64,000 nucleotides of DNA from Clostridia bacterium (GCA_045535785.1 JAZSMH010000060.1:2560-66559); one strand, 5' to 3'; shown: positions 870-36,408, numbered from the stretch's first letter. A program made the numbers and translations. Notes: a model not told the origin generated them from the letters alone.

Positions 870-1394
870 TTATTTGAGTAATTTTTTTAATTTTTTCAAA
901 ATTTTATTTATGTAATCATATGTTGTCGTTAGTGGTTTATTGATTCTTTTTGCTACTTCTTGATAATTTAGTCCTTCCCAATAACGCAAATATATCACTA
1001 GCCGTTCTTCTGCTGATAATTGATTTAATGCATCCTTAATCAAAATTTTATCCAACCAATCATCAACACAATCATCAATAATGGATGCTTCGTCAGTTAA
1101 CTCACAATTATATAAGGAATAATCTCTTCGATTATAATTCACTGCCTCATTATGTATTATTTTATATAACCAATTCAAACCATTTTGAGCAGGATTAAAT
1201 TTGCTTGCATTTTTTACCAATTTGAAATAAGTCTCGCTTACAAGGTCTTCTGCATAGGATTTATCGAATAAATATTTTCTAGCCATAGTAAGAAGCATGC
1301 GACTTGTCAATTCAAACAATTCGTCAAGAGCATGATTATCTCCCTTTGATATACGGTATATAAGTTTGTTTATCTTAAGTACAAGTTTATCCAT
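870..1394 (-). CDS. Sigma-70 family (ECF-like) RNA polymerase sigma factor
   Basis: Region-2-like N-terminal half. The C-terminal region 4 HTH reads LSAEERLVIYLRYWEGLNYQEVAKRINKPLTTTYDYINKILKKL. Confidence 0.8.
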   Translation of the reverse strand: MDKLVLKINKLIYRISKGDNHALDELFELTSRMLLTMARKYLFDKSYAEDLVSETYFKLVKNASKFNPAQNGLNWLYKIIHNEAVNYNRRDYSLYNCELTDEASIIDDCVDDWLDKILIKDALNQLSAEERLVIYLRYWEGLNYQEVAKRINKPLTTTYDYINKILKKLKKLLK

Positions 1395-1774: not shown

Positions 1775-2644
1775 TTAGTTTGCCTTACGCATTTGTGCGA
1801 TTACGTCCTTGCTTACTTTTCCCATGAGGTAGCCTTCATCCCAACAGTTAAAATCGTCATATAGGAGTAGTTTTCTATCTTCTTGTCCTATTCTACAAAC
1901 AATATCTTCGTCCATAATATCCGATATGAAAAATTGTGGTAGTCCTTTCGAGTAGACAATCTTCTCGCCGGTCTTTTCCATCTGCACATAGATATTCCCA
2001 AAATCAAAGGACACGGCAAAGTAGAAGTAGAAGGCAAAGAAAGCCAAAATCACACTTGCCAAGTTAAAGTGGAACACAAGAATTGCTACCCATAATTTCC
2101 ATATCCAGTCGTGTTCTCTGACGAAACAAATATACTGCGCCATAAACTGTTTTACGGGCTGATATGTAACGCTCGAAACACCCTTAAAAATTCGCAGTGG
2201 AACGGTGTCAATATTGTGCTTTGAGTTGGTGCTTGAATATAGTCTTTTTATGACTAAAAGCAAGACCAAAAGACAGGGTAAAATGATGCACAAAATCTTT
2301 GTAAAATCACCGACTTTAACACCAAATTCAGTAAGCCAAGATAGGAAGTTATCCTTGTCAACCAAGAGCCTGAAAAACTCTGTTGCGCCACTTTTGAAGG
2401 CTTCGAAATCTTCTGGCAAGACCGTATCCCATACAATAATTTTTGAGTAGTCTACTATAGTTGCTTGCGTTGGATTTTCTATCTCGAATAAAGTGCAAAA
2501 GTAATACTTTACGGATACACCAAAGTCAATAATAGTTTCCCAAAATCGCAAATATGATGAACTGAATACAAATAGCCCAACGGCAGCAAGACCGAGAAAA
2601 ACAAGTACAGTAAAGCTAATATTTAATGCTCGTTGCAATCTCAT
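1775..2644 (-). CDS. Hypothetical multi-pass membrane protein
   Basis: Long ORF with several hydrophobic segments. No family was recognised. Confidence 0.5.
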   Translation of the reverse strand: MRLQRALNISFTVLVFLGLAAVGLFVFSSSYLRFWETIIDFGVSVKYYFCTLFEIENPTQATIVDYSKIIVWDTVLPEDFEAFKSGATEFFRLLVDKDNFLSWLTEFGVKVGDFTKILCIILPCLLVLLLVIKRLYSSTNSKHNIDTVPLRIFKGVSSVTYQPVKQFMAQYICFVREHDWIWKLWVAILVFHFNLASVILAFFAFYFYFAVSFDFGNIYVQMEKTGEKIVYSKGLPQFFISDIMDEDIVCRIGQEDRKLLLYDDFNCWDEGYLMGKVSKDVIAQMRKAN

Positions 2645-2819: not shown

Positions 2820-3156
2820 CGATTGCTTTTACAGCCTTGAACGGCAACATAATTATCCATACGATTGCCTTCAAAATATAAGGCAAAACAGGAGCCAAAA
2901 CGATAAGCAGTAGGATTATCAAAACGACGGCAAGAAGTATCTTCCACCACTCCAATTCTTGAGGTGGCGCGGTAAATCCGTTTACAATGTCCGTAGGACT
3001 GGACACAACGGGAATAACCCTATAAACGCCATCCTTATTGAACGTCAAATCAATGATACCATTCAGTTTTGAACCTATTAAGAAGTGACTTGTCAAAAGT
3101 TGAAAAATCAATTTCAAACTTGCTTGACTGTATGGAACAAGGTATTTCCACTTCAT
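2761..3156 (-). CDS. Hypothetical membrane protein, probably 5'-truncated at a deletion junction
   Basis: TM segment (ILLAVVLIILLLIVLAPVLPYIL) and a lysine-rich tail. Its first ~30 codons are antisense to the recombinase fragment, so the annotated start is doubtful. Confidence 0.3.
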   Translation of the reverse strand: MKWKYLVPYSQASLKLIFQLLTSHFLIGSKLNGIIDLTFNKDGVYRVIPVVSSPTDIVNGFTAPPQELEWWKILLAVVLIILLLIVLAPVLPYILKAIVWIIMLPFKAVKAIVESIKKKKKKDTGGANENG

Positions 3157-3509
3157 CGACTAAAACCCGATTGGAAGAGTTGGAAGAAAAGCGTTCCATA
3201 CTGAAAGAAAAAATTGTGATGGAACAATACAAGGAACGGCAACTTTTAACAAAAGACGAAATCATCAAATATATAAGTACAGCCATACGAAAATATCCTA
3301 AACAACTGATTGATTTATTGGTAAAAGAAATACGCCTGTATAATGATGAAATAGAAATCGACCTTCACTTCATAGACAAGAAAAGTTCCGACGATAACAA
3401 TCGTTGGGGCTTTTGCTTTTATAATACTGAAAAGAGTTATATCGTAGATACTCACGTTTTCAAGTCGAAACCAACGGAGCATCACGTCAAAATCAAGTTA
3501 AAAGTATAA
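3069..3509 (+). pseudogene. C-terminal fragment of a large serine recombinase (coiled-coil/C-terminal region only)
   Basis: Aligns by eye to the C-terminal third of the intact recombinase at 15852..17393 (SISNLLDCMEQGI vs SIKSIMTAIENGI; RLEELEEK vs RLLNLEAS; a final 'I.LY.D..I.I' block). The resolvase catalytic domain and zinc ribbon are missing. Confidence 0.7.
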
Positions 3510-3552
3510 AAAGCACCCAACTAAACCTTTTTACGGGTTCAGTTGGGTACCG

Positions 3553-3575
3553 CTTGGCGGAGAGAGTGGGATTTG
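3553..3575. repeat. Left att-type direct repeat (copy of the tRNA-Ser 3' end)
   Basis: CTTGGCGGAGAGAGTGGGATTTG is identical to 17370-17392. Confidence 0.85.
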
Positions 3576-3720
3576 CTCCGTTTCGCTTCGCTTCACTATC
3601 ACGCCGGGGTGGCAAACAGTGGGTATCCACTGTTTGTAAGCGACATATTACGTAGTATTGGGGTGTGTCACTTATCCCCACCCGTTCAAATACCACAATG
3701 CACTTTTCTTTACAAAATAT

Positions 3721-3751
3721 ATGACGGGTGGTGATAAATACCATCCGTCAT
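3721..3751. terminator. Hairpin ATGACGGGTGG-N9-CCATCCGTCAT with T-rich flanks
   Basis: 11-bp stem with one G-T pair. It lies about 130 nt downstream of the DUF4238-like gene stop on the minus strand. Confidence 0.4.
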
Positions 3752-3882
3752 TTATTTGGCGGAGTGTGTGCTTCACTCATTGAACTTTTAATTGAGTTTT
3801 GATAAGTATTAATATCGCAATCTCTATAATAAGTTATTATTCTTTAATACAATAAAAACAATACTTATAATTCTAGAAAAAC

Positions 3883-4893
3883 TTACCAATTATGTACTAC
3901 AAACTCTTCTGCATTTTCACGTATTGCAGTATTATATCGTTGCACGGCATTATCTTTTATATGACTTATATAATAATGATTTTCATTAGTGGTATTTTTT
4001 CCTTGTGCTAATAATATTCTTGGAGTTATTGGAAGTAGCCCTACATGCGTGCCGTCTACGCGTTTATGAATAAAGGCAGGAGTATCGCTGGTAATGAACA
4101 ATGTTGGTCCGTCAGCAATTAAAAAATGAAAAGAGGTGTGCTTCAAATTTTTTAGTGCATTTTGAAAAATTATCCCTGTGTCATTTAAATACTGTCTATA
4201 GTATCGCAATAATAAGTTATGCCGCATTTCTTCTGCTGCCGTATCAAGAAAAGGCAATAGTCGTTCTTCTTCCGGAATCGATATTTCACTAAGAGGAATT
4301 ACATCATAACATAACCATGTTAGCAATTCTTCAAATTGAGCATTTGAATTGAATCCACGCCAATCCAATGCCGTAAAAAATTTCATAATATATTCGCGGT
4401 TAAATTCTGCAACCAAATTACCTGTTGCATTTAATATTTGTTCTTCGATAATTAATACTTGTTTGGACCATGCGTTTTCATACTTTTTCGACCAGTTTGC
4501 CTCAATATCTTTTATTTTTACTTTTTCAATCTCTCTACGAATGTTCTGTTTACTAACTAGAGAACCATCAGACCGTTTAATAATCCACTTATCAAAGTCA
4601 TAAAAATATTTGTTCATTTCTAGAGTATTTATAATACTATTACCTTCATATTCGACAGTGTACGATTTTAGACAAGCAAATATCAAATCTGTATCTGCTT
4701 GTGTGCAAAATGGCATCCCTGCTTTAATAGAGTGGAAATCTGTAATACCTGCAATTTTTTCTTTATTCCTTTCTTTGATAACTCCTGGTTCATTTATAAA
4801 CTCTACCTTAAGTGTACCGCTAGCGTTTGCCCATGATGACATATATGTTTGCGGAATTAGATGGTGATATTTTGCTTTGGTTTGATTTAACAT
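3883..4893 (-). CDS. DUF4238-like protein
   Basis: The N-terminus KAKYHHLIPQTYMSSW matches the HH-x-x-PQ-x-Y-hydrophobic signature I associate with DUF4238 (PF14022). The size (336 aa) is typical. There is a strong RBS (AGGAGAG), and the gene starts 44 nt downstream of the giant ORF. Confidence 0.65.
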   Translation of the reverse strand: MLNQTKAKYHHLIPQTYMSSWANASGTLKVEFINEPGVIKERNKEKIAGITDFHSIKAGMPFCTQADTDLIFACLKSYTVEYEGNSIINTLEMNKYFYDFDKWIIKRSDGSLVSKQNIRREIEKVKIKDIEANWSKKYENAWSKQVLIIEEQILNATGNLVAEFNREYIMKFFTALDWRGFNSNAQFEELLTWLCYDVIPLSEISIPEEERLLPFLDTAAEEMRHNLLLRYYRQYLNDTGIIFQNALKNLKHTSFHFLIADGPTLFITSDTPAFIHKRVDGTHVGLLPITPRILLAQGKNTTNENHYYISHIKDNAVQRYNTAIRENAEEFVVHNW

Positions 4894-4937
4894 AAACTCT
4901 CTCCTAATTCTTTTATAAAAGATAAAAAAGTATTTGC

Positions 4938-7900
4938 CTATAAAATGTCATCGTTTATTAGTTTTTCTTCCTTATCCATTGCGGCTTCGTGCCTAGATGA
5001 ACTAGCCATCATTCTTAAAATATGCGCTGCCGCAGGATACATTATTTCACACGTTTTTGCTTCTTCCTCAAGTTTCAGCGCCCTTGCAATTTCTGGCGAG
5101 CCGTCGGTTACTGTTCTAACTCCACGATTGTTTTGGTAACCAATATACACTCCCTTGTTAACTTCTTCATCGTCAACTTCTTCTAACAAAATCTTTAATT
5201 CGCTAGGTATATATTCTTCTTTTGTGTGCTTAAATGAGTTGGCAAGAATTTCTCCAAGGTGTTGTTTTTTAGCCCTATCTTCCACAGAATCACTTGGGGC
5301 ATTTTCCATTATTGTAGATATGAAGTTTGAAACCTGCGCTTGGGTATAGTCTTTAGGAAGTCTCATTCTACCCATAATTTCATATTTTGTTTTAGCAGGA
5401 AGGCTTTTGTTTTCTCGACTAATAATAGCACAATATTCCTTAGGGTTTTCCAAAAAATATCTAAGAATTCCATTTGGTGTATCTCTTCTGTCAAAAAGTG
5501 GTAAGAAAGCAAATTCTAGGCGAATAATATCTTCAGCATAATACTTATCATCTAATTTGGATAAAATTTGTTCTATATAGTAATGCTTTGAAGGGTGAAA
5601 ATTATCTTTATTAATGTTATTCATTGTAGAAATAATTTCCGTTATATCCCAATCTTCTTCTTTCTGATGATATAATAGCCATTGAAAATATCCCGCGGGA
5701 TTGTATTTTTTTATCAATTGAATTTCTATATTATTTGCGTGATTATCCATATGCCTGTGTTCAAAAAACTTTTGTGTTAGGCTCTCATCTTCTAAGATTC
5801 TTGTAGGAATAAAATAATAATTTTGAATAAACGGAATTAGCTCAGTTAGAACTTCAATATCCAAACAATTAATGAAACCATTTTTTTCTTCTTCACCATC
5901 TTTTGCTATAAATGAAGCGAGTGTACAAAATTTTTTAAGGTTTATTAATTGACTCCTTACAAAAAGTTTATCTTCTTCAAGTATATTTGCATCTGCTAAA
6001 AAAGTGCCGTCTGCACCATTGCTGGGTAAAACTTGCAACATTTTATTCAAAACGTCTCTATGATTGAATTCGTTTAGCAGTTCTTGAAGTAGCTCGTTTT
6101 GAAATTTCCTAGTTGCACGTTCTTCCTTCTCGAAATCTTCATCAATTGTTTCTGGAATAGGGCAATCATTATACCCAAAACCTTTGAAGTAAATTAATGA
6201 AGCTTCTATCTTGTCTGTCGGTTTCAAATGTGCGATGACTTTCTCAATAATTTTAATGAATTGTTGAGAATCCTTTTTATGGTATTTTATAACATCATAT
6301 CTCTTTTTTAATAAATATTCGTATAAAGACGTCGCTTCTGAAGTGTTTGGTTGATAGGTTTCAACAATGTAATTTGTAATCTTCTCAAAGGTCTTGGGAG
6401 GTATTTGATGATAATTTTTAATAAGTGTTTTTAGTGTTTTTGTGTCAGAAAAAACAATTGTATTTATTGTTGCAATAATAACCCTATCAATAGCGTTAAA
6501 TAAAACTCCGTACGTTAAATCTTCATTTTTTAAGTCAGGGTCTCTCCATTTCAAAGTTGAATCGGTTAAACAAGCAGAAGTCTTAAATACTATTTTAATT
6601 GCGTAGGGAATAAACTTATTTCCATATTTTGCAATACTTTGCTCCATAAATAGTATCTTATCTTCAAAAGACATAGCGTTTTTATTATTATGCAACCACA
6701 AAATGTTTTCTAATGTTTCGCTAGGTGAGTTGGAAATTTTATAAGTAAATCCTTTTTGAATTAGTTTGAAAAGAATTTTACAAACTCTAATTTTATAATT
6801 GTCTATTCCGCTTAAAGATTCTAATGCCCATAAAAGAGTGCAATAATTATGCCCACCGCCGAAAAGGAAGTCTGCATCATTATTACTGAATAGTTCCCAA
6901 ATTAGACTAGTGTCTTTTTTAATTTCAGCCTCAATAAAGGATAAGAATCTTTCAGGAGAACTCTCTGCTAAAGTTTTCATATAATCCGAAATAGTAAATA
7001 TCATCTCTTTTGAAGATATTGATTTTAATATTTCGTCAATTACCGAATCAACCTCAAGTTGCATTTCGTTGTATATTGACAATAAAATGCAAGAATCTAA
7101 TAACCCTTCGATTAAATAACCACTGTATTGCCACACTTTATTATAAAGTTGATGGGCAAACTGCTTATCTCTTGGTAAGTCATATTTTGGATTAGGAGCG
7201 GAAAAAATAGTTTTAACACTTTCTAATAGTTTTTCTATTGTTTCGCTTGTTATGCTTTTAGAAATTGCACTCCACAATTCCTCTTTTAGGCTAACTTTAA
7301 TAAAGTCCCCGTAACTTAATAACGGACTATTGTCTATGTTTTCCCAACGGCTAATTTTACTGAGATATTGGTCCACCGTTTCTCCGTTCGGTAAAAAAAC
7401 GGATAAAGCATTTCTATCAGATTGACTTTTTTTGTTGATTTTTCCAACCATTAGTAATGGTATTAGTGATGGTAAGTCCTCTTTTGTTCGCCATAAATTC
7501 GACGAATGGCAAGTTTCATTTTCAAGTTCGCGAACGGTTAAAAAAACATTGTTTTTCGCTAAATGTGACAACTTTCTAAGCTGTGTAGTTGAAACACTCA
7601 TTTCATTTTTTAAAATGTCGGATAGCACGGATTGTGGTCTATGCCAAAGTTGGATGTCTATTTTATTATCGCTTATATCCTTACCATAAATAAATATAGT
7701 TGTATTTTTTGAATCGCTTAAATTATAGTTTGAAACATTGCTGTCTAATATCAATATTTTATCGCTAGTTAATGTATTAATCTTTTGCAAAGAAGCATAA
7801 TCTCGACAAATAACTGTTCTTAAATTGTTTTCATCCAAAGCAGTTTCTATCATTGCAGAAATTACAAAACCGTATGCTTCATAAAAAGAAGGTCCCGCAA

Positions 7901-8774
7901 CCTTAATAACCTTTTTGTCTTTAATACTTTCTATTAATGCTTCAACTTCTTTTTCTCTAGAAGCAGTAAAAATCTTGGTTGATAGTTGTGGGGTTGTTGC
8001 GTTTATTAGTTTTTTATGTGCTAAAGCAAGTGTATCAAGAGATAGTTCTTGTCCGCATATATTTTTGTACATCCAAACGCTTGTTGCAAGATTATGCGAT
8101 AGCCATTCTTCTAATTCAACTGACGTGTATACTCTTACTTCCTTCCAAGAACTACCTAAAATATTCTTTTTGATTTCTTCAATAGATTTTGTTTTAAGAG
8201 GTGCTGGCGTAACTAACACAAATGTGGTTTGTTTCTTTTGGTTAACACCGATTTGAGCGTCGCGCTTTTCAAAATCAGCGAGTATTTTAGTTTTAGAAGT
8301 TTTTACTGTTGCTCCTAACTCCCAAAAACTTTCACCTTCGGGAATATATAAAGATTTGGGAGAAACTACATTTAAGAATCCGTCAACACCATCTAAAGAG
8401 ATTTTATCACCTTGAGGAAAACGAAATTCTTTAGGAAAAGTAGTGAGACTTTCCTTTAAAAGTCGTCCAATTAATTCAGGAAACTTTCCTTGAGAATCCC
8501 TTTGATTATCAGCAAACCAATTTTCTATTTGAGTTGCCGTTATCAGTTTGTAGCCCAATTGATAGGGGTTGCTTTTGTAAAATTCAACACCGTTCTCTTT
8601 GCAAAAATCATATAATTTTTTTTCAGTACTAGCATGTGGCGTCGTCAATCCCTGCTCCCAACGATTAATTGTAGCAAAAGCAACGCCTAATTTTTTAGCC
8701 AATTCTTCTTGTGTAATACCTAATTCTTCTCGCACAAAGCGTATTTTTTCTGAAAATTCCATTTTTGTCCCCAT
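4938..8774 (-). CDS. Giant (1278 aa) protein: N-terminal XRE-type HTH, possible nuclease-like module, long uncharacterised mostly helical body
   Basis: The 3.8-kb ORF is uninterrupted. The HTH reads IRFVREELGITQEELAKKLGVAFATINRWEQG. No Walker A (G-x4-GK[ST]) is found anywhere. The likely true start is ATG at 8762 (MEFSEK), with a GGGGA RBS. Confidence 0.85.
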   Translation of the reverse strand: MGTKMEFSEKIRFVREELGITQEELAKKLGVAFATINRWEQGLTTPHASTEKKLYDFCKENGVEFYKSNPYQLGYKLITATQIENWFADNQRDSQGKFPELIGRLLKESLTTFPKEFRFPQGDKISLDGVDGFLNVVSPKSLYIPEGESFWELGATVKTSKTKILADFEKRDAQIGVNQKKQTTFVLVTPAPLKTKSIEEIKKNILGSSWKEVRVYTSVELEEWLSHNLATSVWMYKNICGQELSLDTLALAHKKLINATTPQLSTKIFTASREKEVEALIESIKDKKVIKVAGPSFYEAYGFVISAMIETALDENNLRTVICRDYASLQKINTLTSDKILILDSNVSNYNLSDSKNTTIFIYGKDISDNKIDIQLWHRPQSVLSDILKNEMSVSTTQLRKLSHLAKNNVFLTVRELENETCHSSNLWRTKEDLPSLIPLLMVGKINKKSQSDRNALSVFLPNGETVDQYLSKISRWENIDNSPLLSYGDFIKVSLKEELWSAISKSITSETIEKLLESVKTIFSAPNPKYDLPRDKQFAHQLYNKVWQYSGYLIEGLLDSCILLSIYNEMQLEVDSVIDEILKSISSKEMIFTISDYMKTLAESSPERFLSFIEAEIKKDTSLIWELFSNNDADFLFGGGHNYCTLLWALESLSGIDNYKIRVCKILFKLIQKGFTYKISNSPSETLENILWLHNNKNAMSFEDKILFMEQSIAKYGNKFIPYAIKIVFKTSACLTDSTLKWRDPDLKNEDLTYGVLFNAIDRVIIATINTIVFSDTKTLKTLIKNYHQIPPKTFEKITNYIVETYQPNTSEATSLYEYLLKKRYDVIKYHKKDSQQFIKIIEKVIAHLKPTDKIEASLIYFKGFGYNDCPIPETIDEDFEKEERATRKFQNELLQELLNEFNHRDVLNKMLQVLPSNGADGTFLADANILEEDKLFVRSQLINLKKFCTLASFIAKDGEEEKNGFINCLDIEVLTELIPFIQNYYFIPTRILEDESLTQKFFEHRHMDNHANNIEIQLIKKYNPAGYFQWLLYHQKEEDWDITEIISTMNNINKDNFHPSKHYYIEQILSKLDDKYYAEDIIRLEFAFLPLFDRRDTPNGILRYFLENPKEYCAIISRENKSLPAKTKYEIMGRMRLPKDYTQAQVSNFISTIMENAPSDSVEDRAKKQHLGEILANSFKHTKEEYIPSELKILLEEVDDEEVNKGVYIGYQNNRGVRTVTDGSPEIARALKLEEEAKTCEIMYPAAAHILRMMASSSRHEAAMDKEEKLINDDIL

Positions 8775-8797
8775 ATAACATTTATAACTTTTATAAC

Positions 8798-8826
8798 ATT
8801 ATACCTCAACATTTAAATTTTGTCAA
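8798..8826 (-). promoter_or_regulatory. Consensus sigma-70-type promoter for the giant HTH gene
   Basis: The minus strand reads TTGACA-17 nt-TATAAT. The leader contains three GTTATA repeats at 9-bp spacing. Confidence 0.65.
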
Positions 8827-8864
8827 TAATTTATGTCATTTATTAAAAACCACTACCTTTCCAC

Positions 8865-8893
8865 TTGACATTTAATTCTAATTATTGTACTAT
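8865..8893 (+). promoter_or_regulatory. Promoter for the methyltransferase operon
   Basis: TTGACA (8865-8870), 17-nt spacer, TACTAT (8888-8893). It is divergent from the giant-gene promoter. Confidence 0.55.
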
Positions 8894-8926
8894 ATAAACA
8901 CTTGGATGTTATAGGATGTGAAAAAT

Positions 8927-10873
8927 ATGAGATTTATTGGAAGCAAGACAAATTTACTGAACAACATAAAGCAAGTTATAGATGATAATTGCACTGACAA
9001 TAATGAAATCTTCTGTGATATTTTTTCTGGGACGGGAGCAGTATCGAGATTTTTTAAGCAAGATTATCAAATTATAAGTAATGACTTGCTATATTTCTCC
9101 CATATTTTAACTGCTGCAACTATTGAAAACAATACTATACCATCATTTGAAAAATTAAAAGCAAAAGGAATTTTAGACCCTTTTGCTTATTTAGAATCCA
9201 ACGACCTTCCTCTTTCTTTAGTAAACGGCTTTGTTACAGAAGAATATTCGCCTAAAGGAAGAGCAGGACGTATGTATATAACCGAAAACAATGCAGAAAG
9301 AATTGATTTTATTAGGACTACTATTGAAGAATGGAAAACTAAAAAATGGATAGATTCTTACGAGTATAAATATCTTTTAGCTTGTCTTATAGAAGGAGTA
9401 CCTTTCGTGTCTAACACCACAGGGACTTATGGTGCTTATTTAAAAAAGTGGGACAAACGTGCATTTAAGCGCTTTGAACTATTCAAATTAGCCGTTATTG
9501 ATAATAAGCGTAGAAATATTTGTTATAACGAAGATGCCAATGAATTAATAAAAAAAATTAGTGGCGATATTTTATATATTGACCCTCCTTACAACGATAG
9601 ACAATATCTTCCTAATTACCACGTTTTGGAAACCATTGCTAAATATGATTCGCCTTGCGTAAAAGGAGTAACAGGCGTTCGTCCATATACAAATGAAAAA
9701 TCAAGTTATTGTATAAAATCAAAGGTTAAGGAAGCTTTTGACGATTTAATCAAAAACGCCGATTTCAAACACATTGTTATAAGTTATAGCGACGATGGGC
9801 TACTCTCTGTAGAGGAAATAATTGAGATTTTAACTAAACACTGTATGCTTGATAGCATTAAAAAGTACGATATACCGTATGCTCGTTATAAAGGCAAATT
9901 AGAACAAGCAAAAAAAGAACATAACGAATATATATTCTACGCAAAGAAAGACATTATTCGTTCAAGTGTAGTCGAAAAGAAGGTTAAAGCGACTCGTAAA
10001 CCAACCGATAGCATAGACAAAAAACGCTTTATAAAAAGTCCTATGAATTATATAGGTGGTAAATACAAATTGTTGCCTCAATTAATGCCCCTTTTCCCAC
10101 AAAACATTAACACCTTTGTTGATTTGTTTGCAGGAGGATTTAATGTTGCCGTAAACGTTAAGTCAAACAAAACCATTTGCAATGATTTAAACTATCTTGT
10201 TGTTGAGATGGTAAGAACATTAGCCTATGCTGATATAGATATTGTTTTGAAACGTATTGATGAGAAAATTGCAGAATATGGGTTATCTAAAGAAAATGAA
10301 GAAGGGTTTAAGGCTTTTAGAAACTTTTATAATGCCAATCACAACCCAATTGATTTGCTAACACTATCTAGTTTTTCTTTTAATTATCAATTCCGTTTTA
10401 ACAGCAACTTAGAATATAATAATCCATTTGGAAGAAATCGAAGTCAATTTTCAGAAACTATGAGACAAAATTTAATTTTGTTTATGTCGGAAATGAAAAA
10501 GAAAAATTTGGAATTTTATTCGAGAGATTTTAGAGAAATATCTTTAGATGGATTATCAGATAATGACTTTATTTATTGCGACCCTCCGTATTTAATTACG
10601 AATGGCTCTTATAATGATGGAAATAGAGGTTTTCACGATTGGGGTACTGACGAAGAAAAAGCTCTTTACGAATACCTTGATGAGGCAAACAAGCGCAATA
10701 TTAAGTTCGCTCTTTCTAATGTTTTATTCCACAAAGGAATTGAAAATAAAATATTGATAGACTGGTCAAAAAAATATAAAATTCATTACATTAATAGCGA
10801 CTATTCAAATTGTAATTATCAATATAAAAATAAAGAAACAACGTCTGTTGAAGTATTAATCACTAATTATTAA
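8927..10873 (+). CDS. Fused double N6-adenine DNA methyltransferase (two Dam/D12-class domains; M.FokI-like architecture)
   Basis: Domain 1 has RFIGSK, FCDIFSGTG (motif I) and DPPY at 9581-9592. Domain 2 has YIGGKYKLL, FVDLFAGGF and DPPY at 10580-10591. The ORF track starts at GTG 8918; I prefer ATG 8927 (MRFIGSK). Confidence 0.85.
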   Translation: MRFIGSKTNLLNNIKQVIDDNCTDNNEIFCDIFSGTGAVSRFFKQDYQIISNDLLYFSHILTAATIENNTIPSFEKLKAKGILDPFAYLESNDLPLSLVNGFVTEEYSPKGRAGRMYITENNAERIDFIRTTIEEWKTKKWIDSYEYKYLLACLIEGVPFVSNTTGTYGAYLKKWDKRAFKRFELFKLAVIDNKRRNICYNEDANELIKKISGDILYIDPPYNDRQYLPNYHVLETIAKYDSPCVKGVTGVRPYTNEKSSYCIKSKVKEAFDDLIKNADFKHIVISYSDDGLLSVEEIIEILTKHCMLDSIKKYDIPYARYKGKLEQAKKEHNEYIFYAKKDIIRSSVVEKKVKATRKPTDSIDKKRFIKSPMNYIGGKYKLLPQLMPLFPQNINTFVDLFAGGFNVAVNVKSNKTICNDLNYLVVEMVRTLAYADIDIVLKRIDEKIAEYGLSKENEEGFKAFRNFYNANHNPIDLLTLSSFSFNYQFRFNSNLEYNNPFGRNRSQFSETMRQNLILFMSEMKKKNLEFYSRDFREISLDGLSDNDFIYCDPPYLITNGSYNDGNRGFHDWGTDEEKALYEYLDEANKRNIKFALSNVLFHKGIENKILIDWSKKYKIHYINSDYSNCNYQYKNKETTSVEVLITNY

Positions 10874-10880
10874 GGTATTT

Positions 10881-11858
10881 ATGGATAAAGAAATAAAAAC
10901 AATCCCTGCTAAAAACATTAAAAAAGAAGATATAGCAAGATTGCCTCTATGGGTACAAGAAAACCTTGACTCTGCCATTCTAATTGGTAGTTCTTATAGA
11001 ACAATCCAATTGTTAGATGGGAGAAAATATTCATTAGATAATGAAATAAATGATTTAGATGGCGCAGAATGGACAAAAAACATTTGCTCGGTTATTAATA
11101 CTCATTATTCAACCAAAGGGGAAGATAGCTTTGCTCACGACATCAGAAAGGTCCACCCAACCCCAAAACCTCCTCAACTAATGAGAGATTTAATAAAGTT
11201 TTTTACAAAAGAAAACGATATTGTATTTGATTATTTTATGGGTGTTGGTGGTTCCCTTCTCGGAGCAGCACTTTGTAATCGACGAGGTGCCGGAATTGAT
11301 TTAAATGAAAAATATGTCGATTCTTATAAAAAAGCAGCATCTAAGTTGAATTTACCTGTTTTCCCGTGCATAGTTGGAGATAGTAATGACATTTTAGATA
11401 ATGACTCCAAAGTTACTAGCTTATTGAATAATGAAAAAGCAAGTTTAATACTTATAGACCCACCGTACGCTAATATGATGTCAAAACCTAAAACAGGTGC
11501 CGATATTGCAGTATATGGGAATATTGCAACCCCTTTTACTGATTTCGATAATGATATAGGTAATTGTAGCTACCATGAATTCCTAAATAAGCTGAAAAAC
11601 ATTGTATCAAAATCATTGCAATATCTTAAGAATAAAGGGTATCTAATAGTTTTTTGTAAGGACATGCAACCCAAAAAGAAAGAACCTCATTTGTTGCATT
11701 CAGACATAGTAAATGCGTTAAACGAGATTCCTTCGTTATATTTTCGTGGATTAAAAATTTGGGCAGACCAAACGGTCAAATTATTCCCTTATGGTTATCC
11801 ATTTGATTTTGTTTCAAATCAAATTCATCAATATATTTTAATTTTTAGAAAATACTAG
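10881..11858 (+). CDS. Third DNA methyltransferase (N6A/N4C type, DPPY)
   Basis: Contains HPTPKP, FDYFMGVGGS (AdoMet motif I) and LILIDPPYANM (DPPY at 11457-11468). It starts 7 nt after the fused methyltransferase stop. Confidence 0.75.
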   Translation: MDKEIKTIPAKNIKKEDIARLPLWVQENLDSAILIGSSYRTIQLLDGRKYSLDNEINDLDGAEWTKNICSVINTHYSTKGEDSFAHDIRKVHPTPKPPQLMRDLIKFFTKENDIVFDYFMGVGGSLLGAALCNRRGAGIDLNEKYVDSYKKAASKLNLPVFPCIVGDSNDILDNDSKVTSLLNNEKASLILIDPPYANMMSKPKTGADIAVYGNIATPFTDFDNDIGNCSYHEFLNKLKNIVSKSLQYLKNKGYLIVFCKDMQPKKKEPHLLHSDIVNALNEIPSLYFRGLKIWADQTVKLFPYGYPFDFVSNQIHQYILIFRKY

Positions 11859-13237
11859 TCTATTCCGATGTTCTTAAAAGCATCTTTTACCGCCTGTGGC
11901 GCAGCATCGTTGATTATAACTTTTCCTTGATTATTACAATATATTAGAACCGATTCATGTGGAAGAGTTGTTCCTTCTCCACCAAATAAAGTAATCCATC
12001 TAGTTATTGTATAACCAGGGTAACTAGGTTTAATATGCTCATTTTCTATCGCATCATACCCTCTAATATCATGCAATCCTTCAGCGAGTTTATTGTACAT
12101 TTTACCTTCTACAAGATAAATTTCTCTAGTTGAATCATTACGTAATACCACGTCGGGTAAAAGAAGATTATCTTCTCCACCAGCATCTTTTTTATGGAGT
12201 GTGGTAAAACTTCCGTTTGCTTCTCTAAAATAACTTCTTTCGCAACCTGCGTGATTTTCATAGATACCATGTATTCCCGCATATTGACAAGTCAAGTGCA
12301 ATAAGATAGATGCTACTTTTTCGGAAGACATGGCATATTGCCAATAATGTTCAGGAAGTTCAATATTAGCAGGCAATGTAATCCCATCTAACTGTACATT
12401 TAAAATTTTACAAATTCTGATGAATTTATTTCCACTGTTCCTTGATGCATACGATTGAGAAACCCCATGTTGTGTAATAATTATTTTTCCTGCCCAACCA
12501 AGTTTCCTCAAAGTGCTTGCTATACAAGTTAAAGTTCCTATATTAGGGTCGTGTCCAATATTTCCTTTATCTTTTGGTTTGGAAAGCATACCTGAAACAG
12601 TTATAGTTTCATCACTTAACTTGTTTATCAATATAGGAGTATTTGTTTTATTTGGTAACCGCATATTCCCCTTAAACTCTATCATTTCGTCAACGGAAGT
12701 AAAAGCGCAAAATGGGGTCATAGTCTTGCCTAAGAATCTAACGTCTTGAGCTAAAAGCATATTTGTACCAAATATGTTTGTTTGGGTCGGTGTTCTGTCA
12801 CTATCAGGCGTTGCTTCTTCATTATACAACATATACTTTGGCGTATCTGGACAATAATAGTTTGCATACGTAAACTTAGAGGCTCTCTGACCAATACCTG
12901 TATTTCTTGATTCAGCATCACTTGTTTTAGTTTCTTCCAATAAAAATACTATATTGTTTAGCGAGTGATTTGCAGGAACTTCTTCTTGTTCTACAAGCAT
13001 ATAGTCCATAAAGCTTGAATAACCACTAATAATTTTTATATTTATTTCTGAGATGTTACCAATATTTGCGCTTTCAACCACATACTCAAACGAGAACAAA
13101 CCGTGTTGTGTTTTAGGTTTGATTTTAATATCACCACAAGTCAAAGTTTCATTTTTTAATTTGCAGTATTCTTGAAGAATTGTTAACACTACCGAATTTT
13201 TAGGGCGTTCCTCTGTAAGAATCCATAAGTTGTTCAT
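11855..13237 (-). CDS. Putative restriction endonuclease of the R-M module
   Basis: Convergent with the third methyltransferase, overlapping it by 4 bp. It has a C-terminal PD-x14-E-G-K motif (LLLPDVVLRNDSTREIYLVEGK, nt 12101-12157). It shows no similarity to the FokI nuclease that I can see. Confidence 0.55.
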   Translation of the reverse strand: MNNLWILTEERPKNSVVLTILQEYCKLKNETLTCGDIKIKPKTQHGLFSFEYVVESANIGNISEINIKIISGYSSFMDYMLVEQEEVPANHSLNNIVFLLEETKTSDAESRNTGIGQRASKFTYANYYCPDTPKYMLYNEEATPDSDRTPTQTNIFGTNMLLAQDVRFLGKTMTPFCAFTSVDEMIEFKGNMRLPNKTNTPILINKLSDETITVSGMLSKPKDKGNIGHDPNIGTLTCIASTLRKLGWAGKIIITQHGVSQSYASRNSGNKFIRICKILNVQLDGITLPANIELPEHYWQYAMSSEKVASILLHLTCQYAGIHGIYENHAGCERSYFREANGSFTTLHKKDAGGEDNLLLPDVVLRNDSTREIYLVEGKMYNKLAEGLHDIRGYDAIENEHIKPSYPGYTITRWITLFGGEGTTLPHESVLIYCNNQGKVIINDAAPQAVKDAFKNIGID

Positions 13238-13507
13238 AAAAATTTTTCTCCCGTATAATAACTGAGCTTATATTATAACATGTTTTCGGTAAAATATCAA
13301 TTCATTTACTCAGTTCATAGCTAAACAGCCTAAAAGTGGGTTTCCCACTTGTTTTAGAGTCGAAATTGCAATTTGGTGCAATTTCCTTAACCTGCTTAGG
13401 CGTTGAAATCTGCATCATTTTTTCGGGAAAAACGCACCGCTAAAAATCTTCTAAAAAGTTTATAAATATGACACACTTTGTCATCTTTACTTTGGTATAA
13501 TAGGACT

Positions 13508-14554
13508 ATGGATAAATTAGCATATCACTACAACAAGAAAAAACTACCCGCTAAAACTGAGGGTAAATATCTATACTATTATCCTTGCGATGATATTGAA
13601 AACGCCACCGTTCAAATGGGTGGGCGTGGTTTTGTCACGATTGAAGTAAGCGAGAAAGAATGGGAAGCGTTAATTGAGTTAGATAGGATTGAGTATAATA
13701 ACGAGCATAAATACGTACGCCATACTGCTGAACTTCTCGATGAAGAAGATGAAACTTTAACTGCAAAGCAACTAGAAAACTTCCACGTTAAGGATACCCC
13801 TATAGATACAAAAGTGGCAAACTATTACTACAAAAAAGACCTATATAACCAACTTACCGAAGATGAAGAAAAAGTTCTTAAAATGCTTGAAAACGGCGCT
13901 ACTCAAAAAAATATAGCTAAAGCATTAAACGTTACACAAGGCTACGTTTCAATGATTAAAGCCAAAGCACAATACAACTACGATTATGCAGAACAAACTA
14001 CAGCTATAAAAACTAATTGTCCCGAATACCTTTGGAAGTGTTGGAACTTGTTTGCTAAAAAGTTAGAAATGCCGATGTTCTTAGACGTAGAAATGGAATA
14101 TGTATTAAGACATCTCCATCCTAACGATATAGCCCACTTCCTTTATTGGTATTATAGTTTGGGCGAATTTGTCCGTTTTTCTATTAGATACTATCTATAT
14201 AACGAGGAAGCGCTTGAAAAAGAAAAGTCGGAGTATCTATCTAAGGCAAGCGACCAAGAGCTTGCTTGGTATTTACAAAACTATGCCGATGCAGTTCCTT
14301 TGGTACAAATCGTATATATCCGTTTAATTACCGAAGTTGAATGTCGTAGAGAACGTGGATTGCACGGTAATAATAAAGCGGCAGACGGCTTATATACCGC
14401 TGTGGAGAAGCTTGCAAAGCGTGTAAATATATCACCCGAAGAATATTACGAAAAGCGTATTTATCCTATCATAGTTAATATTCGTACTAGACGAATAAAG
14501 CAGTTTTACCGCTTCTATTCAGGCAAGACACTAAAAAAATTAAATTATTTTTAA
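13508..14554 (+). CDS. HTH protein with sigma-70 region-4/LuxR-like motif (mobile-element regulator)
   Basis: The motif is LTEDEEKVLKMLENGATQKNIAKALNVTQGYVSMIK. ATG 13508 lies 6 nt after an extended -10 (TGGTATAAT); the track start TTG 13478 lies upstream of that promoter. Confidence 0.6.
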   Translation: MDKLAYHYNKKKLPAKTEGKYLYYYPCDDIENATVQMGGRGFVTIEVSEKEWEALIELDRIEYNNEHKYVRHTAELLDEEDETLTAKQLENFHVKDTPIDTKVANYYYKKDLYNQLTEDEEKVLKMLENGATQKNIAKALNVTQGYVSMIKAKAQYNYDYAEQTTAIKTNCPEYLWKCWNLFAKKLEMPMFLDVEMEYVLRHLHPNDIAHFLYWYYSLGEFVRFSIRYYLYNEEALEKEKSEYLSKASDQELAWYLQNYADAVPLVQIVYIRLITEVECRRERGLHGNNKAADGLYTAVEKLAKRVNISPEEYYEKRIYPIIVNIRTRRIKQFYRFYSGKTLKKLNYF

Positions 14555-14685
14555 AAAGTTTTCAATTTTACTAATATTTTCCTTCTTCTCGTGGCTTATA
14601 AGTGGAGGGAGCAATTCTGAACGATGACCTAATGAACAGGTTGTCGTTCTTTTTTATCCCTTAAAAAACAAAAAGGAGGTGAAAA

Positions 14686-15465
14686 ATGACTAATTGGAAT
14701 TACGAATATTATGAAAACCCTATAAGGGACAAGCACGCTACTATTTCCGTTCTCACGTTTAAGAAAGATGAATTGTCTGAACAAGACGATTATCTTAAAG
14801 AAGTTGAACAAACTTATAAAACGGAGTGGTTAAAACCTATGTTATCTAATTTTGAACAAGAATGGATACGAATTAAAACCAAACACAACGCAAGATTTTT
14901 TAATCGCGGTAAGAACATCGCATTAGAATGTTTGCAGTTCGGTGGTAATCACGAGTTTTGGGACGATTTCCCCGATGAATACGAAATATTAGCGTATTTC
15001 AAAAGATGTTATGCTTTTGCAATCGAAACTATTGGCTACAAGCAAACTGATACGAACATCATTTGCGCCATTATCGTTACCGAGCCAAACCGAAGAAACC
15101 TTTTCGTGTATTACTTGCCACTAACGAACAGTTGGCAACGAAAGGTTTGCGGAAACGAATTTTCTCAATGTGGAAGTAGATTGCAATTAAGAAATGATGA
15201 CGGCAAACCCGTTTATCGTACAATACATAGCGACGTAAAGCCATTACTTTGCCACTCTGAATTTTGGAAGCAACGTGGCGGTTTAACGTCTTACTCTGAC
15301 CTACAAGAGAGATTTTACAACGAAATATCTTATAGGTACGGAGCTGAACGTGGCGAAAGCTTGTCAAGATTAAAGTACACGTCTAAAGAACAGATTAAAC
15401 GTTTTAATCGTAAAGAAGGCGATGACTACGACGTTATCCCTATAACTTCGGACATTTGGATTTAA
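14686..15465 (+). CDS. Mob/Pre (MobV)-like protein, apparently lacking the histidine metal-binding motif
   Basis: Strong RBS (AAAGGAGGTG). The block ICAIIVTEPNRRNLFVYYLPL sits where MobV relaxases carry HxDExxPHxH. The downstream YSDLQERFYNEISYRYGAERGES resembles the conserved 'LQD.F....G..RG' block. Confidence 0.4.
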   Translation: MTNWNYEYYENPIRDKHATISVLTFKKDELSEQDDYLKEVEQTYKTEWLKPMLSNFEQEWIRIKTKHNARFFNRGKNIALECLQFGGNHEFWDDFPDEYEILAYFKRCYAFAIETIGYKQTDTNIICAIIVTEPNRRNLFVYYLPLTNSWQRKVCGNEFSQCGSRLQLRNDDGKPVYRTIHSDVKPLLCHSEFWKQRGGLTSYSDLQERFYNEISYRYGAERGESLSRLKYTSKEQIKRFNRKEGDDYDVIPITSDIWI

Positions 15466-15533
15466 CTGATGCCAAGTGTCTATTTATTTTATCAGTACAT
15501 AACCAAAAAAATCAAGGAGGAAAATTGTGGTTT

Positions 15534-15674
15534 ATGGTTAAAGATTTACTAACAAACACAACGCATCTGTTGAGATGTAGTTTATTGGTGTTCTGCCATC
15601 AGGAAAGAGGACATTGTATCCGCACAAATAAAAAATTAAGGAGATTTGAAAAGACATTATTTAGACGAATTTAA
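15534..15674 (+). CDS. Small basic Cys/His-containing ORF (hypothetical)
   Basis: AAGGAGG at 15514-15520 lies upstream. It contains CSLLVFCHQERGHC. The start is uncertain (TTG 15525 or ATG 15534), and it overlaps the next ORF. Confidence 0.2.
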   Translation: MVKDLLTNTTHLLRCSLLVFCHQERGHCIRTNKKLRRFEKTLFRRI

Positions 15675-15855
15675 CAAGGTGGAAATTAACCTTTCCACCA
15701 ACGAAGTGGCAACTTCACCACTTGAATTAGATGATGAAACACTAACAGCAAGCGCTTCGGTGCTTGCAAATATGTTGTTAGACTTTGTACGAGATAACAA
15801 CTCGTATGAAAATCTAACACCTAAGAACGTTTTTAGAAAGGAGAACAAACAATGA
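15646..15855 (+). CDS. Small acidic protein, translationally coupled to the recombinase (possible directionality factor)
   Basis: TTG start with an AAGGAG RBS. Its stop overlaps the recombinase ATG (ATGA). Confidence 0.4.
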   Translation: MKRHYLDEFNKVEINLSTNEVATSPLELDDETLTASASVLANMLLDFVRDNNSYENLTPKNVFRKENKQ

Positions 15856-17393
15856 AAAAAGCAGTAATCTACGCAAGATTTAGTTCGCACTCTCAAACCG
15901 AACAATCTATTGAAGGTCAACTACGTGAGTGCTACGATTTTGCAAAGCGAAGCGACATTACAATCGTTGGCGAGTACATAGATAGGGCTTTAACGGGAAC
16001 GTCAGATAAACGTCCACAGTTTCTTAAAATGATTGAAGATAGCAAGAAAAAGAGCTTTGAGTACGTTTTGGTTTACCAATTAGACCGTTTTGCCCGTAAT
16101 CGTTACGACAGCGCCAACTACAAAGCAAAATTAAAGAAAAACGGCGTAAGAGTTTTGTCTGCAAAAGAAAACATTACCGACGATGCAAGCGGAATACTTG
16201 TAGAAGGTATGCTAGAGAGTATGGCGGAGTACTACTCCGCCGAACTTTCTCAAAAAGTTAAGCGTGGCATTAAAGAAAGCCTTATAAAAGGCAATTTTAT
16301 AGGCGGTCACGGACTTTTGGGCTACGACACCGTTGATAAAAAGTGGACGATTAACCCACTTGAAGCAACAGTAGTTAGAGATATTTTTACAAGATACCGA
16401 AACGGAGAGAAAGCAAAAGATATTATAGCTCGCCTAAACGCATCGAGTATTAAAACTAAGTCAGGCAAAAAGTTTTCTATGAGCCAACTTGCCCGTATTA
16501 TACGAAATGAAAAGTATATGGGCATTGTTAACGTGGACGGAAAAGTCTATACAAACGTAATTCCACCTATCGTGGATGAAAAATTATTTAGGGAGTGTAA
16601 TTTAATTATGGATTTACATAAGCATAAACAAAGAAAGAACTATGACGAACAACCGTATATTTTAAGCGGTAAACTCTTTTGTGGGTATTGTGAATCGGCA
16701 ATTACCGCAGAAACAGGCACGAGTAAAACGGGACGTGTTTACCATTACTACAAGTGTTACGGAAAGAAATTAAACCCAAATGACTGCCACAAGAAAAACG
16801 TGAGCCAAGATTTTATTGAAACACTTGTATTTGAAGCGACTATAAAATACGTGCTACGCCCAAAAGTTATTGATAAAATCGCTAAACTTGTTGCAGATAA
16901 GTTTAACGCAGAACTATCTATGCCAACCGTTTTATTATCGCTACAAAAAGAACTTAAAGAAGTCAATAAGTCAATTAAGAGCATTATGACGGCAATAGAA
17001 AACGGTATCTTTACAAAGACAACAAAAGACCGCTTGCTAAATCTTGAAGCAAGTCAATCCGACCTTGAAAACAAGATAGCCGTTGAAGAAGCAAGACAAG
17101 TTAAACCTTTACAACCTAACGAAGTTAAGAAATTTTTAACCTATTTTGCCTATATGAAATACGAAAAAGGCGAAGAAAAAAACGAGTTCTTTAACTCGTT
17201 TATAAATCGTGTTATTTTGTATGATGATAAAGTTATTATTCTCTACAACTCAAACGATAGAGAAACTAAACGCCTTAATAAAAAGCAGTTAAAGGAAATT
17301 GAAAATGGGAAAAACCTTGAAGAAATAAAAGAAAACTCGTCTGAACATAAAAAGTTCAAACGAGTTGCTCTTGGCGGAGAGAGTGGGATTTGA
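15852..17393 (+). CDS. Large serine recombinase/integrase
   Basis: The resolvase domain has KKAVIYARFSSHSQ and YQLDRFARN. A recombinase domain and a zinc ribbon (CGYCES...YYKCYGKK) follow, then a long coiled-coil C-terminus. The last 22 nt lie inside the tRNA-Ser gene. Confidence 0.9.
   Translation: MKKAVIYARFSSHSQTEQSIEGQLRECYDFAKRSDITIVGEYIDRALTGTSDKRPQFLKMIEDSKKKSFEYVLVYQLDRFARNRYDSANYKAKLKKNGVRVLSAKENITDDASGILVEGMLESMAEYYSAELSQKVKRGIKESLIKGNFIGGHGLLGYDTVDKKWTINPLEATVVRDIFTRYRNGEKAKDIIARLNASSIKTKSGKKFSMSQLARIIRNEKYMGIVNVDGKVYTNVIPPIVDEKLFRECNLIMDLHKHKQRKNYDEQPYILSGKLFCGYCESAITAETGTSKTGRVYHYYKCYGKKLNPNDCHKKNVSQDFIETLVFEATIKYVLRPKVIDKIAKLVADKFNAELSMPTVLLSLQKELKEVNKSIKSIMTAIENGIFTKTTKDRLLNLEASQSDLENKIAVEEARQVKPLQPNEVKKFLTYFAYMKYEKGEEKNEFFNSFINRVILYDDKVIILYNSNDRETKRLNKKQLKEIENGKNLEEIKENSSEHKKFKRVALGGESGI
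17370..17392. repeat. Right att-type direct repeat (within the tRNA-Ser 3' end)
   Basis: Identical to 3553-3575. Confidence 0.85.
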
Positions 17394-17462
17394 ACCCACG
17401 GTACCCTTTTGGGGTACACACGATTTCCAATCGTGCTCCTTCGGCCCCTCGGACATCTCTCC
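17372..17462 (-). tRNA. tRNA-Ser (anticodon GGA), class II with long variable arm, CCA encoded
   Basis: The reverse complement is GGAGAGATGTCCGAGG...CACGATTGGAAATCGTG...GGTTCAAATCCCACTCTCTCCGCCA. It has a 7-bp acceptor stem, an anticodon loop TTGGAAA and a T-loop GGTTCAAATCC. Confidence 0.9.
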
Positions 17463-36333: not shown

Positions 36334-36408
36334 TGGTGACTCCTAGGGGATTCGAACCCCTGTAGCCGCCGTGAGAGGGCGGAGTCTTGACCGCTTGACC
36401 AAGGAGCC
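36334..36408 (-). tRNA. tRNA-Glu (anticodon CTC), CCA encoded
   Basis: The reverse complement is GGCTCCTTGGTCAAGCGG...CCGCCCTCTCACGGCGG...GGTTCGAATCCCCTAGGAGTCACCA. It gives a 75-nt cloverleaf with anticodon loop CTCTCAC. Confidence 0.85.

Follow-up and report, generated by a model that had tools for sequence, protein, structure and literature searches.

The window analysed here is a 64,000-nucleotide (nt) stretch of DNA from a Clostridia bacterium (GCA_045535785.1 JAZSMH010000060.1:2560-66559), and our subject is a pair of neighbouring genes on its minus strand. One encodes a very large protein with an XRE-type helix-turn-helix (HTH) near its N-terminus, which we call the giant protein, and the other encodes a protein of the DUF4238 family. 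An earlier note, made from the sequence alone, had proposed a functional defence module made up of these two genes, beside restriction-modification (R-M) genes. Comparison with related loci leads us to a different view: the DUF4238 gene is a replaceable passenger cassette in a variable slot behind the giant gene, and we are confident that the two are not an obligate pair. The features at the centre of the analysis are given below, with coordinates counted from the first letter of the window and lengths in amino acids (aa) or nt.

4938..8774, (-): giant open reading frame (ORF), 1278 aa as listed, phrog_18693 family
3883..4893, (-): DUF4238 gene, 336 aa
4894..4937, (-): intergenic spacer, 44 nt, holding an AGGAGAG ribosome-binding site before the ATG of the second gene
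8798..8826, (-): promoter of the giant gene, sigma-70 type, TTGACA-17-TATAAT, 12/12
8774..8797, (-): operator-like triple direct repeat, GTTATAAAA-GTTATAAAT-GTTATA, lying past the -10 box and ahead of the ribosome-binding site
3721..3751: possible terminator, a 13-bp hairpin ~130 nt past the DUF4238 stop, called on the + strand only

The two ORFs run in the same direction with 44 nt between them (4894..4937), as the earlier note had stated, and the perfect TTGACA-17-TATAAT promoter that it described was recovered with a score of 12/12; read along the minus strand (8826..8798), it is the only one of the region's 27 promoter-like hits to be perfect. The giant gene as listed is probably a few codons too long. 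Since the homologues all begin MEFS..., at an ATG matching window position 8762, and since the ATG at 8774 falls within a conserved non-coding repeat, the true start of the giant protein is probably ATG 8762, which would give a length of 1274 aa. No promoter-like or terminator-like site was found in the spacer 4894..4937 or just upstream of it, and because nothing of the kind separates the two genes they are probably carried on one transcript. As the hairpin at 3721..3751 was called on the + strand only, we infer, rather than observe, a role for it in ending the minus-strand transcript.

Whether the two genes belong together can be read from L001, a Christensenellaceae contig from a metagenome-assembled genome (loci with members of the giant family are numbered with an L throughout). 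Over 11.8 kb (window 16773..4945), a span covering the R-M genes and the complete giant gene, L001 and the window are 98.1% identical; the identity ends at the stop codon of the giant gene (4938-4945) and resumes only for 47 nt (3803..3757). Between these junctions the window holds the DUF4238 gene and L001 holds genes of 191 aa and 360 aa, which also begin 44 nt past the giant stop, and the cassette 3804..4944 is missing from L001; on the L001 contig the exchange, with its right junction, covers 11831-13669. The far edge of the exchange is the following segment.

3757..3803, (-): right junction of the swap, 47 nt, 93.6% identical to L001 13623-13669, with a 29-nt core that is unique in the window

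The junction segment ends in ...CACACTCCGCCA, after which L001 diverges again and a housekeeping-type dehydrogenase gene comes next. Other relatives fill the same slot in other ways. A giant gene of 94% identity has the same R-M genes upstream and a 189-aa gene downstream, and one of 88% identity has an MmeI/Eco57I-type methyltransferase (MTase) and a T5orf172-ResIII protein upstream and likewise a 189-aa gene in the slot, the two 189-aa genes being 96% identical to each other. Relatives of 59-60% identity have no co-oriented gene downstream, and farther ones are followed by integrase genes or by genes of integrative and conjugative elements (ICEs), ArdA included. The different slot proteins found behind giant genes are mutually unrelated, and three unrelated cassette proteins gave no above-threshold domain assignment.

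A wider survey points the same way. To the loci already in hand, 80 metagenome and 3 plasmid loci were added, and the giant proteins were dereplicated at 85% identity into 89 groups. One peptide pattern, LWALEx[LI]AW, served to gather the metagenome loci; of at least 590 matches the best 80 were kept, and they over-represent one part of the family; their neighbour genes are crude longest-ORF calls, and the Pfam neighbour summaries are drawn from the 25 commonest families per set. Within 5 kb of the giant gene, BLAST clustering of the neighbours found no partner in more than 4 of the 89 groups. Among the two genes downstream in ~89 contexts, DUF4238 accounts for 2 of 123 proteins by Pfam, namely the window's own and that of L032, the Adhaeribacter radiodurans plasmid NZ_CP055152 (4929-12237), on which a giant homologue that has no HTH is followed, 210 nt on, by a DUF4238 gene of 413 aa. 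The co-oriented row on that plasmid reads HTH, ImmA/IrrE, PDC-S02 (YhcG PDDEXK), giant homologue, DUF4238. In L093, a 303-aa ORF (3164-4075) that begins ...DHHYVPRFFLRNF has a motif like that of DUF4238 and is located upstream of the giant gene at a distance of 1.6 kb, past an AbiE pair; as a third DUF4238 gene near a giant gene it was not confirmed (hhalign probability 14.7%). The earlier note had named conservation of the pair as neighbours across genomes as a check on its proposal, and DUF4238 is found downstream in only 2 of ~89 contexts. Given this, and given a slot that is swapped in L001 and holds other genes or none in relatives of 59-94% identity, the functional two-gene module does not hold.

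The identification of the second gene did stand. The ORF in which the earlier note had seen an HHxxPQxY signature is a full-length match to PF14022 (DUF4238; E 1.5e-22, 80.8 bits vs a cut-off of 27, aa 9-335 on profile positions 1-278/281). The 336-aa protein begins ...KYHHLIPQTYMSSW, its signature reads KYHHLIPQTY, and among the aligned sequences, which take in the distant Adhaeribacter DUF4238 member, H10, H11, P14 and Q15 do not vary. The statement in the earlier note that a stand-alone DUF4238 gene had been reported as anti-phage is also borne out, in that Rousset 2022 described a single DUF4238 protein from an E. coli P2 hotspot that protects E. coli against T7 (PMC9122126). The PADLOC model DUF4238-Pers does not match the window protein at E<=1 and does match the Adhaeribacter protein (4.7e-8). 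A tblastn search with the window protein against 50,697 phage records, P2-like phages included, returned nothing, and no match was found among PDB sequences. Homologues of the DUF4238 protein form more than 264 clusters, and its nearest relatives (67-76% identity) lie in four independent contexts, all four without a giant gene: behind a 181-aa gene beside serine recombinases, behind a 335-aa and 481-aa pair beside VbhA/Fic, at the edge of a TerL/primase/PolA element, and beside a recombinase. Judged by its sequence, the window gene adds a new and distant member to a known defence family and is a candidate anti-phage gene. To our knowledge, no mechanism has been established for any DUF4238 protein.

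The giant protein, as the earlier note had surmised, fits no described system, since sequence searches of Pfam, NCBIfam, PADLOC and PDB match its HTH only. In Pfam, no model besides HTH_3 scored above threshold, at this position:

8625..8744, (-): XRE-type HTH, aa 11-50 (Pfam HTH_3, E 2.8e-12)

The PDB sequence matches, confined to the same domain, are of the Cro/C1/C-protein/HipB type and include C.Esp1396I and C.BclI, and the core of the family is covered by no model of Pfam, NCBIfam or PADLOC. Among PHROGs, phrog_18693, to which no function is assigned, matches with E 1.4e-42 (aa 76-915 on profile positions 2-846/1258). Homologues carry the public labels 'helix-turn-helix transcriptional regulator', 'HigA family antitoxin' or 'hypothetical'. 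A literature search found no description of the family; a recent defence catalogue may list it.

This family is large. When aa 66-505, the HTH left out, were used in an exhaustive profile search, 4,677 cluster representatives (clusters at 50% identity) were matched at E<=1e-3 and 2,585 at E<=1e-30; most of the matched proteins are 1,250-1,370 aa long. Word-indexed searches had given 40 clusters and the picture of a rare family, which we rejected as an index artefact once the exhaustive search found thousands; a genome scan with a narrower alignment of the family gave 5 loci. Members occur in Proteobacteria, Bacteroidota, Actinomycetota and Firmicutes, and homologues were found on 21 plasmids, while a tblastn search of the giant protein against phage records returned one unannotated 6.6-kb record only.

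An AlphaFold2 model of aa 77-1276, built on a 39-sequence alignment, reached a pLDDT of 87.8 and a pTM of 0.67, and the N-domain modelled alone a pLDDT of 89.2. The model divides into three parts.

8052..8546, (-): N-domain, aa 77-241, with a predicted restriction-endonuclease-like alpha/beta fold (AlphaFold2 model)
7287..8039, (-): middle alpha/beta domain with helices and a winged-helix-like unit, aa ~246-496 (DSSP of the model)
4941..7286, (-): C-terminal alpha-solenoid, aa ~497-1278 (~780 aa), HEAT/ARM-like, all-helical with high pLDDT

In the modelled N-domain the elements follow the order alpha-beta-beta-beta-alpha-beta, as in the PD-(D/E)xK core. When this domain was compared with the PDB by Foldseek, nearly all of the top 21 matches, and every match with a probability above 0.6, were PD-(D/E)xK nucleases, among them MUS81, Can2, MspJI, EcoT38I and R.BspD6I, with HamA and PaqCI further down; the matches are weak (E 3e-3 to 0.2, TM-scores 0.3-0.48). 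D131 sits at the start of beta2, E152 in beta3, and K163, D167 and R171 on the next helix. In an alignment of 234 family members, D131 and E152 are each conserved in 226/226, K163 in 222/226 and R171 in 224/226, and position 167 is D in 214 and E in 6. Such a motif was also located in 133 of 142 newly found top relatives, 104 of which start directly with the nuclease-like domain; the remaining 29 have an N-terminal extension, and the two extensions examined are both HTH domains. The N-terminal XRE HTH of the earlier note is thus real in the window protein (aa 11-50) and does not stand as a family feature, about three quarters of the top relatives being without it.

The rest of the protein is less easily placed. 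The middle domain has conserved residues (R273, E299, F303, R415, W428, D453), and its sole structural lead is a weak match to an Avs5 filament, 9nc9_G (E 1.9e-5, TMt 0.22). This match ranks third in the comparison of the full model with the PDB, where importin-beta, CRM1, CAND1 and Pds5B are matched at E 1e-4 to 4e-6 with low TM-scores. In the solenoid, a motif GYxNxRGVRTxxDGxxE is kept family-wide at aa 1206-1228 (window ~5091-5159), in a loop between helices, and the conserved C-terminal residues are N1215, G1218, R1220, D1224, G1225 and E1228. Foldseek against viral structures returned generic repeat proteins only. The domain order and the Avs5 match made us consider membership of the STAND/Avs nucleoside triphosphatases (NTPases), which we rejected: the Walker A motif GxxxxGK[ST], absent according to the earlier note, is indeed found neither in the window protein nor in any of the 234 family members, and Pfam gave no AAA, NACHT or NB-ARC match. 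The giant family is therefore not a family of STAND NTPases despite the similar order of its domains.

The non-coding sequence in front of the giant gene is conserved as well. The exact 24-nt repeat pattern occurs once in the window (8797..8774) and in 0 of 100 shuffles. Ahead of the giant gene it recurs exactly in 12 other loci (L001, L006-L014, L020, L021), and variants (GTTATATATGTTATAAAA and similar) stand there in L002, L003, L004 and L015, where the giant proteins are 36-61% identical. The -35 box, (A/C)TTGACAAAA, is kept where giant proteins are 37-88% identical and the upstream genes differ. Every inspected locus of the HTH-bearing Firmicutes clade (proteins 36-98% identical) has the same promoter-repeat unit before the giant gene, in most cases a TTGACA -35 box, a -10 box and two to three tandem copies of GTTATA(A/T)A followed by the ribosome-binding site; in L003 and L015 there is no clear TTGACA box. 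Promoter and operator thus stay with the giant gene even where its neighbours differ, and non-coding conservation at such protein divergence indicates a cis-regulatory site. The candidate binder of the repeat is the giant protein's own XRE HTH, which we predict to act as a repressor of the consensus promoter. As the operator is also present without an adjoining R-M system (L006, L020), we assign it to the giant gene and not to the R-M system.

The setting of the giant family is, by association, typical of accessory defence genes; the neighbour figures that follow are raw counts of genes near the loci. In the two genes upstream across 89 contexts, Pfam found AbiEii 6 times, AbiEi 6, D12 MTase 3, N6_N4 MTase 3, N6_Mtase 2, Eco57I 2, HsdR 1 and C5 MTase 1, with DNA MTases in at least 8 loci. 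A divergent AbiEi/AbiEii pair stands directly upstream of a subclade of HTH-bearing giant genes of ~1,350 aa in at least 6 dereplicated loci (L016/L017, L084, L088, L073, L077 and L105, and also L093), which makes the AbiE pair a more recurrent neighbour than DUF4238. In L016/L017, where the giant relative is 22% identical, the divergent AbiE pair upstream is accompanied by a housekeeping gene downstream; another 22% relative, in L018/L019, lies within a block of Mrr/HNH genes. Some giant genes are embedded in R-M operons. One follows mod by 4 nt and precedes res by 41 nt in a Type III operon (L047, 272-6834), and another comes 12 nt behind hsdM and hsdS and 29 nt before a Schlafen/AlbA_2 protein and GmrSD (L107, 3307-13118). 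Elsewhere hsdR lies upstream (L111), a C5 MTase 16 nt upstream (L109), an nSTAND1 NTPase downstream (L079) and PDC-S02 upstream (L032), and integrases, transposases and serine recombinases are frequent beside giant genes.

In the window itself the neighbour is a complete divergent Type II R-M module, recognised by Pfam and PADLOC, so that the back-to-back arrangement with the gene pair described in the earlier note was confirmed.

8918..13237: Type II (IIS-like) R-M module (Pfam and PADLOC)
8918..10873, (+): D12 MTase, tandem-domain (PADLOC MTase_II 2e-260)
10881..11858, (+): N6_N4 MTase (PADLOC MTase_II 1e-121)
11855..13237, (-): restriction endonuclease (REase), 460 aa (PADLOC REase_II 9e-54)

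The 651-aa D12 MTase is a fusion of two MTase domains in tandem (aa 2-344 and 365-651), and it is the combination of this protein with an N6_N4 MTase and an REase that gives the module its Type IIS-like layout. The same trio adjoins giant genes of 60-98% identity (L001, L002, L010-13, L117). We considered the giant protein as a restriction subunit or controller of the adjoining R-M system and rejected both roles, given that most family members have no R-M neighbour and that the operator is kept even where no R-M genes are nearby.

All of these genes lie within a 13.8-kb AT-rich island at a tRNA-Ser gene (GC 0.31-0.34 vs ~0.41 in the rest of the window), delimited by the following features.

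3553-3575: distal attachment (att) repeat, exact 23-bp copy of the tRNA-Ser 3' end
17370-17392: proximal att repeat, exact 23-bp, equal to the 3' end of tRNA-Ser(GGA)
17372..17462, (-): tRNA-Ser(GGA), abutted by a large serine recombinase
15852..17393, (+): large serine recombinase, inside the island, beside tRNA-Ser(GGA)

The GC dip, the exact 23-bp direct repeats and the serine recombinase bear out the earlier description of an AT-rich, tRNA-integrated island, and we conclude that this 13.8-kb element, put into tRNA-Ser by the serine recombinase, is a defence island. Beyond the distal att repeat (window 1-3552) the GC content is again low, at 0.31-0.37. This part encodes an ECF-type (extracytoplasmic function) sigma factor (870..1394) and a 289-aa ORF (1775..2644) with similarity to a portion of a 703-aa protein whose gene is convergent to the giant gene of L020, and it may be a second mobile element in tandem. 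Farther along the window, ARAGORN called an odd tRNA-like gene with a two-base anticodon (26230-26297, -), and a GC dip to 0.353 (34001-36408) adjoins tRNA-Glu(CTC) at 36334..36408 and may mark another island.

Based on these observations, we read the giant protein as a stand-alone, autoregulated candidate defence nuclease that sits beside an independent DUF4238 gene, and we consider this combined reading reasonably probable. On this model, the island would hold three independently working modules: the Type II (IIS-like) R-M system, the giant protein and the DUF4238 protein. The solenoid of the giant protein would sense or dock a protein or nucleic acid derived from an invader, and this binding would release or position the N-terminal nuclease for cutting of DNA; other single-chain immune proteins that join an effector to a repeat sensor work alike. 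In the Firmicutes clade, the fused XRE HTH would repress its own consensus promoter through the GTTATA-repeat operator. Recombination would have placed the DUF4238 gene in the variable slot, where it would be expressed by read-through from the giant promoter and, like the published single-gene DUF4238 system, would act alone. Taken by itself, the claim that the giant protein is a defence nuclease falls a little short of what we would call probable. More tentatively still, we propose as a possibility a widespread unnamed family of single-chain immune nucleases, in which a variant PD-(D/E)xK domain is joined to a huge alpha-solenoid sensor with no NTPase switch, one HTH-bearing clade represses itself, and the slot behind the gene is a landing pad for small defence genes, DUF4238 included.

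Three other explanations have to be set against this. An obligate two-gene system of giant HTH protein and DUF4238, one being the sensor or DNA binder and the other the effector or partner, seems to us very improbable. Such a system would account for the 44-nt gap and the shared promoter with no terminator between the genes, for the same-strand order of giant gene and then DUF4238, 210 nt apart, on the Adhaeribacter plasmid in another phylum, and perhaps for the unconfirmed DUF4238-like motif 1.6 kb from the giant gene in L093 (hhalign 14.7%). However, the pairing is missing in all close relatives (59-98%) and in ~87 of 89 contexts, the nearest DUF4238 relatives are without a giant gene in the contexts read, and DUF4238 genes are far more often solitary, one sufficing alone in E. 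coli (PMC9122126). A looser arrangement, with the giant protein as the conserved sensing or regulating part and exchangeable effector cassettes 36-45 nt behind it under its control, would explain why giant genes of 88-98% identity carry three unrelated cassettes at near-equal short spacing with sharp junctions. The cassettes, moreover, apparently have no promoters of their own and so would depend on the HTH-controlled promoter, and two of them have faint sub-threshold matches to GIY-YIG (E 0.0055) and CARF_HEPN (E 1.9e-4). Yet the slot is without a co-oriented gene in relatives of 59-60% identity and in most of the wider family, the cassette domain matches are below threshold, and uncoupled variable cargo behind strongly expressed genes is common in defence islands; furthermore, with an invariant putative catalytic site of its own the giant protein needs no separate effector. 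We regard this arrangement as improbable.

The third explanation takes the giant protein out of immunity altogether and makes it a large transcription factor, a maintenance or exclusion factor of mobile elements or an anti-defence factor, with a nuclease-like fold used only for binding DNA. The public labels 'helix-turn-helix transcriptional regulator' and 'HigA family antitoxin' agree with this, as do the homologues on conjugative plasmids and, in L003, beside the ICE genes ArdA/PcfK, and the HTH and operator would point at least to autoregulation. But about three quarters of the family has no HTH, and DNA-sequence-specific regulation is therefore not the family's core function, while conservation of the D/E/K set over 226 diverse members argues for catalysis. 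Near-absence from phage genomes (one unannotated 6.6-kb record) and embedding in Type I and Type III R-M operons, together with AbiE, GmrSD, Mrr and STAND neighbours of the kind typical of defence genes, also speak against a non-immune role, which we consider unlikely.

Several points count against the stand-alone defence nuclease that we prefer. The case for a defence role of the family is guilt by association from gene context, and the structural matches behind the nuclease assignment are weak (best E 3e-3, TM-scores below 0.5); no Pfam nuclease model matches the giant protein, K163 lies outside the canonical (D/E)xK position, and the middle domain is without a fold assignment. On the side of coupling, two pairs of giant gene and DUF4238 in distant phyla (Clostridia and Bacteroidota), together with the unconfirmed case in L093, are slightly more than naive chance would give and may reflect a loose association, and a functional tie between slot and giant protein is one possible reading of the three different small genes that follow near-identical giant genes at 36-45 nt. 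The context survey, too, rests on crude ORF calls, one peptide pattern and the 25 commonest Pfam families.

Should the giant family prove to act in defence, it would be a common and so far unmodelled single-gene system of prokaryotic immunity; being absent from Pfam, NCBIfam and PADLOC, it would be missed by current defence-annotation pipelines. Its design, a nuclease with a solenoid and no NTPase, would be unusual, and the conserved promoter-operator unit would offer a directly testable case of a self-repressing immune gene. The locus also carries a caution for the reading of defence islands, in that genes which are closely spaced and share a promoter in a single genome need not form a system: the DUF4238 gene here is a swappable cassette.

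Compared with the published stand-alone DUF4238 system, Rst_DUF4238, the window protein is likewise a full-length PF14022 member with an N-terminal HHxxPQ motif, and its gene, like those of its closest relatives, is carried as accessory cargo towards the end of a mobile element. In contrast to Rst_DUF4238, it is apparently transcribed from its neighbour's promoter, and it is very distant from the validated protein and missed by the PADLOC model DUF4238-Pers. For the giant protein, the nearest designs are DSR2, which combines SIR2 with HEAT-like repeats, and Avs/AVAST, which combine a nuclease or SIR2 with a STAND NTPase and a TPR-like (tetratricopeptide repeat) sensor. Like these, the giant protein has a putative enzymatic domain at its N-terminus followed by very long helical repeats and is encoded by a single gene in defence islands, and the Avs5 filament is among its best full-length structural matches (E 1.9e-5). 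It differs in having no sequence match to the PADLOC Dsr/Avs models, no SIR2 and no Walker A motif, and with TM-scores as low as 0.16-0.22 the resemblance is one of architecture and not of membership.

Set against the PD-(D/E)xK superfamily, the likeness lies in the predicted order of the core elements and in the acidic residues D131 (beta2 start) and E152 (beta3). The giant protein differs in that K163 is on the helix after beta3 and not two residues past the glutamate, and in that no Pfam or NCBIfam nuclease model matches it and its structural scores are marginal; its E...K-x3-D pattern is closer to the 'ERKx3D' of ERCC4 proteins (MUS81/XPF) than to the classical (D/E)xK. Family members inside R-M operons with gaps of 4-41 nt (L047, L107) recall the PrrC/RloC-type insertions of Type I systems, whereas the giant protein has no homology to these, the R-M system of the window is divergent and not interrupted, and most members have no R-M neighbour. 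Finally, the giant protein resembles the controller (C) proteins of R-M systems in that its XRE HTH adjoins an R-M system and a conserved repeat operator overlaps the start of its gene's own transcript. Unlike those controllers, however, it carries its HTH fused to a protein of ~1,200 aa.

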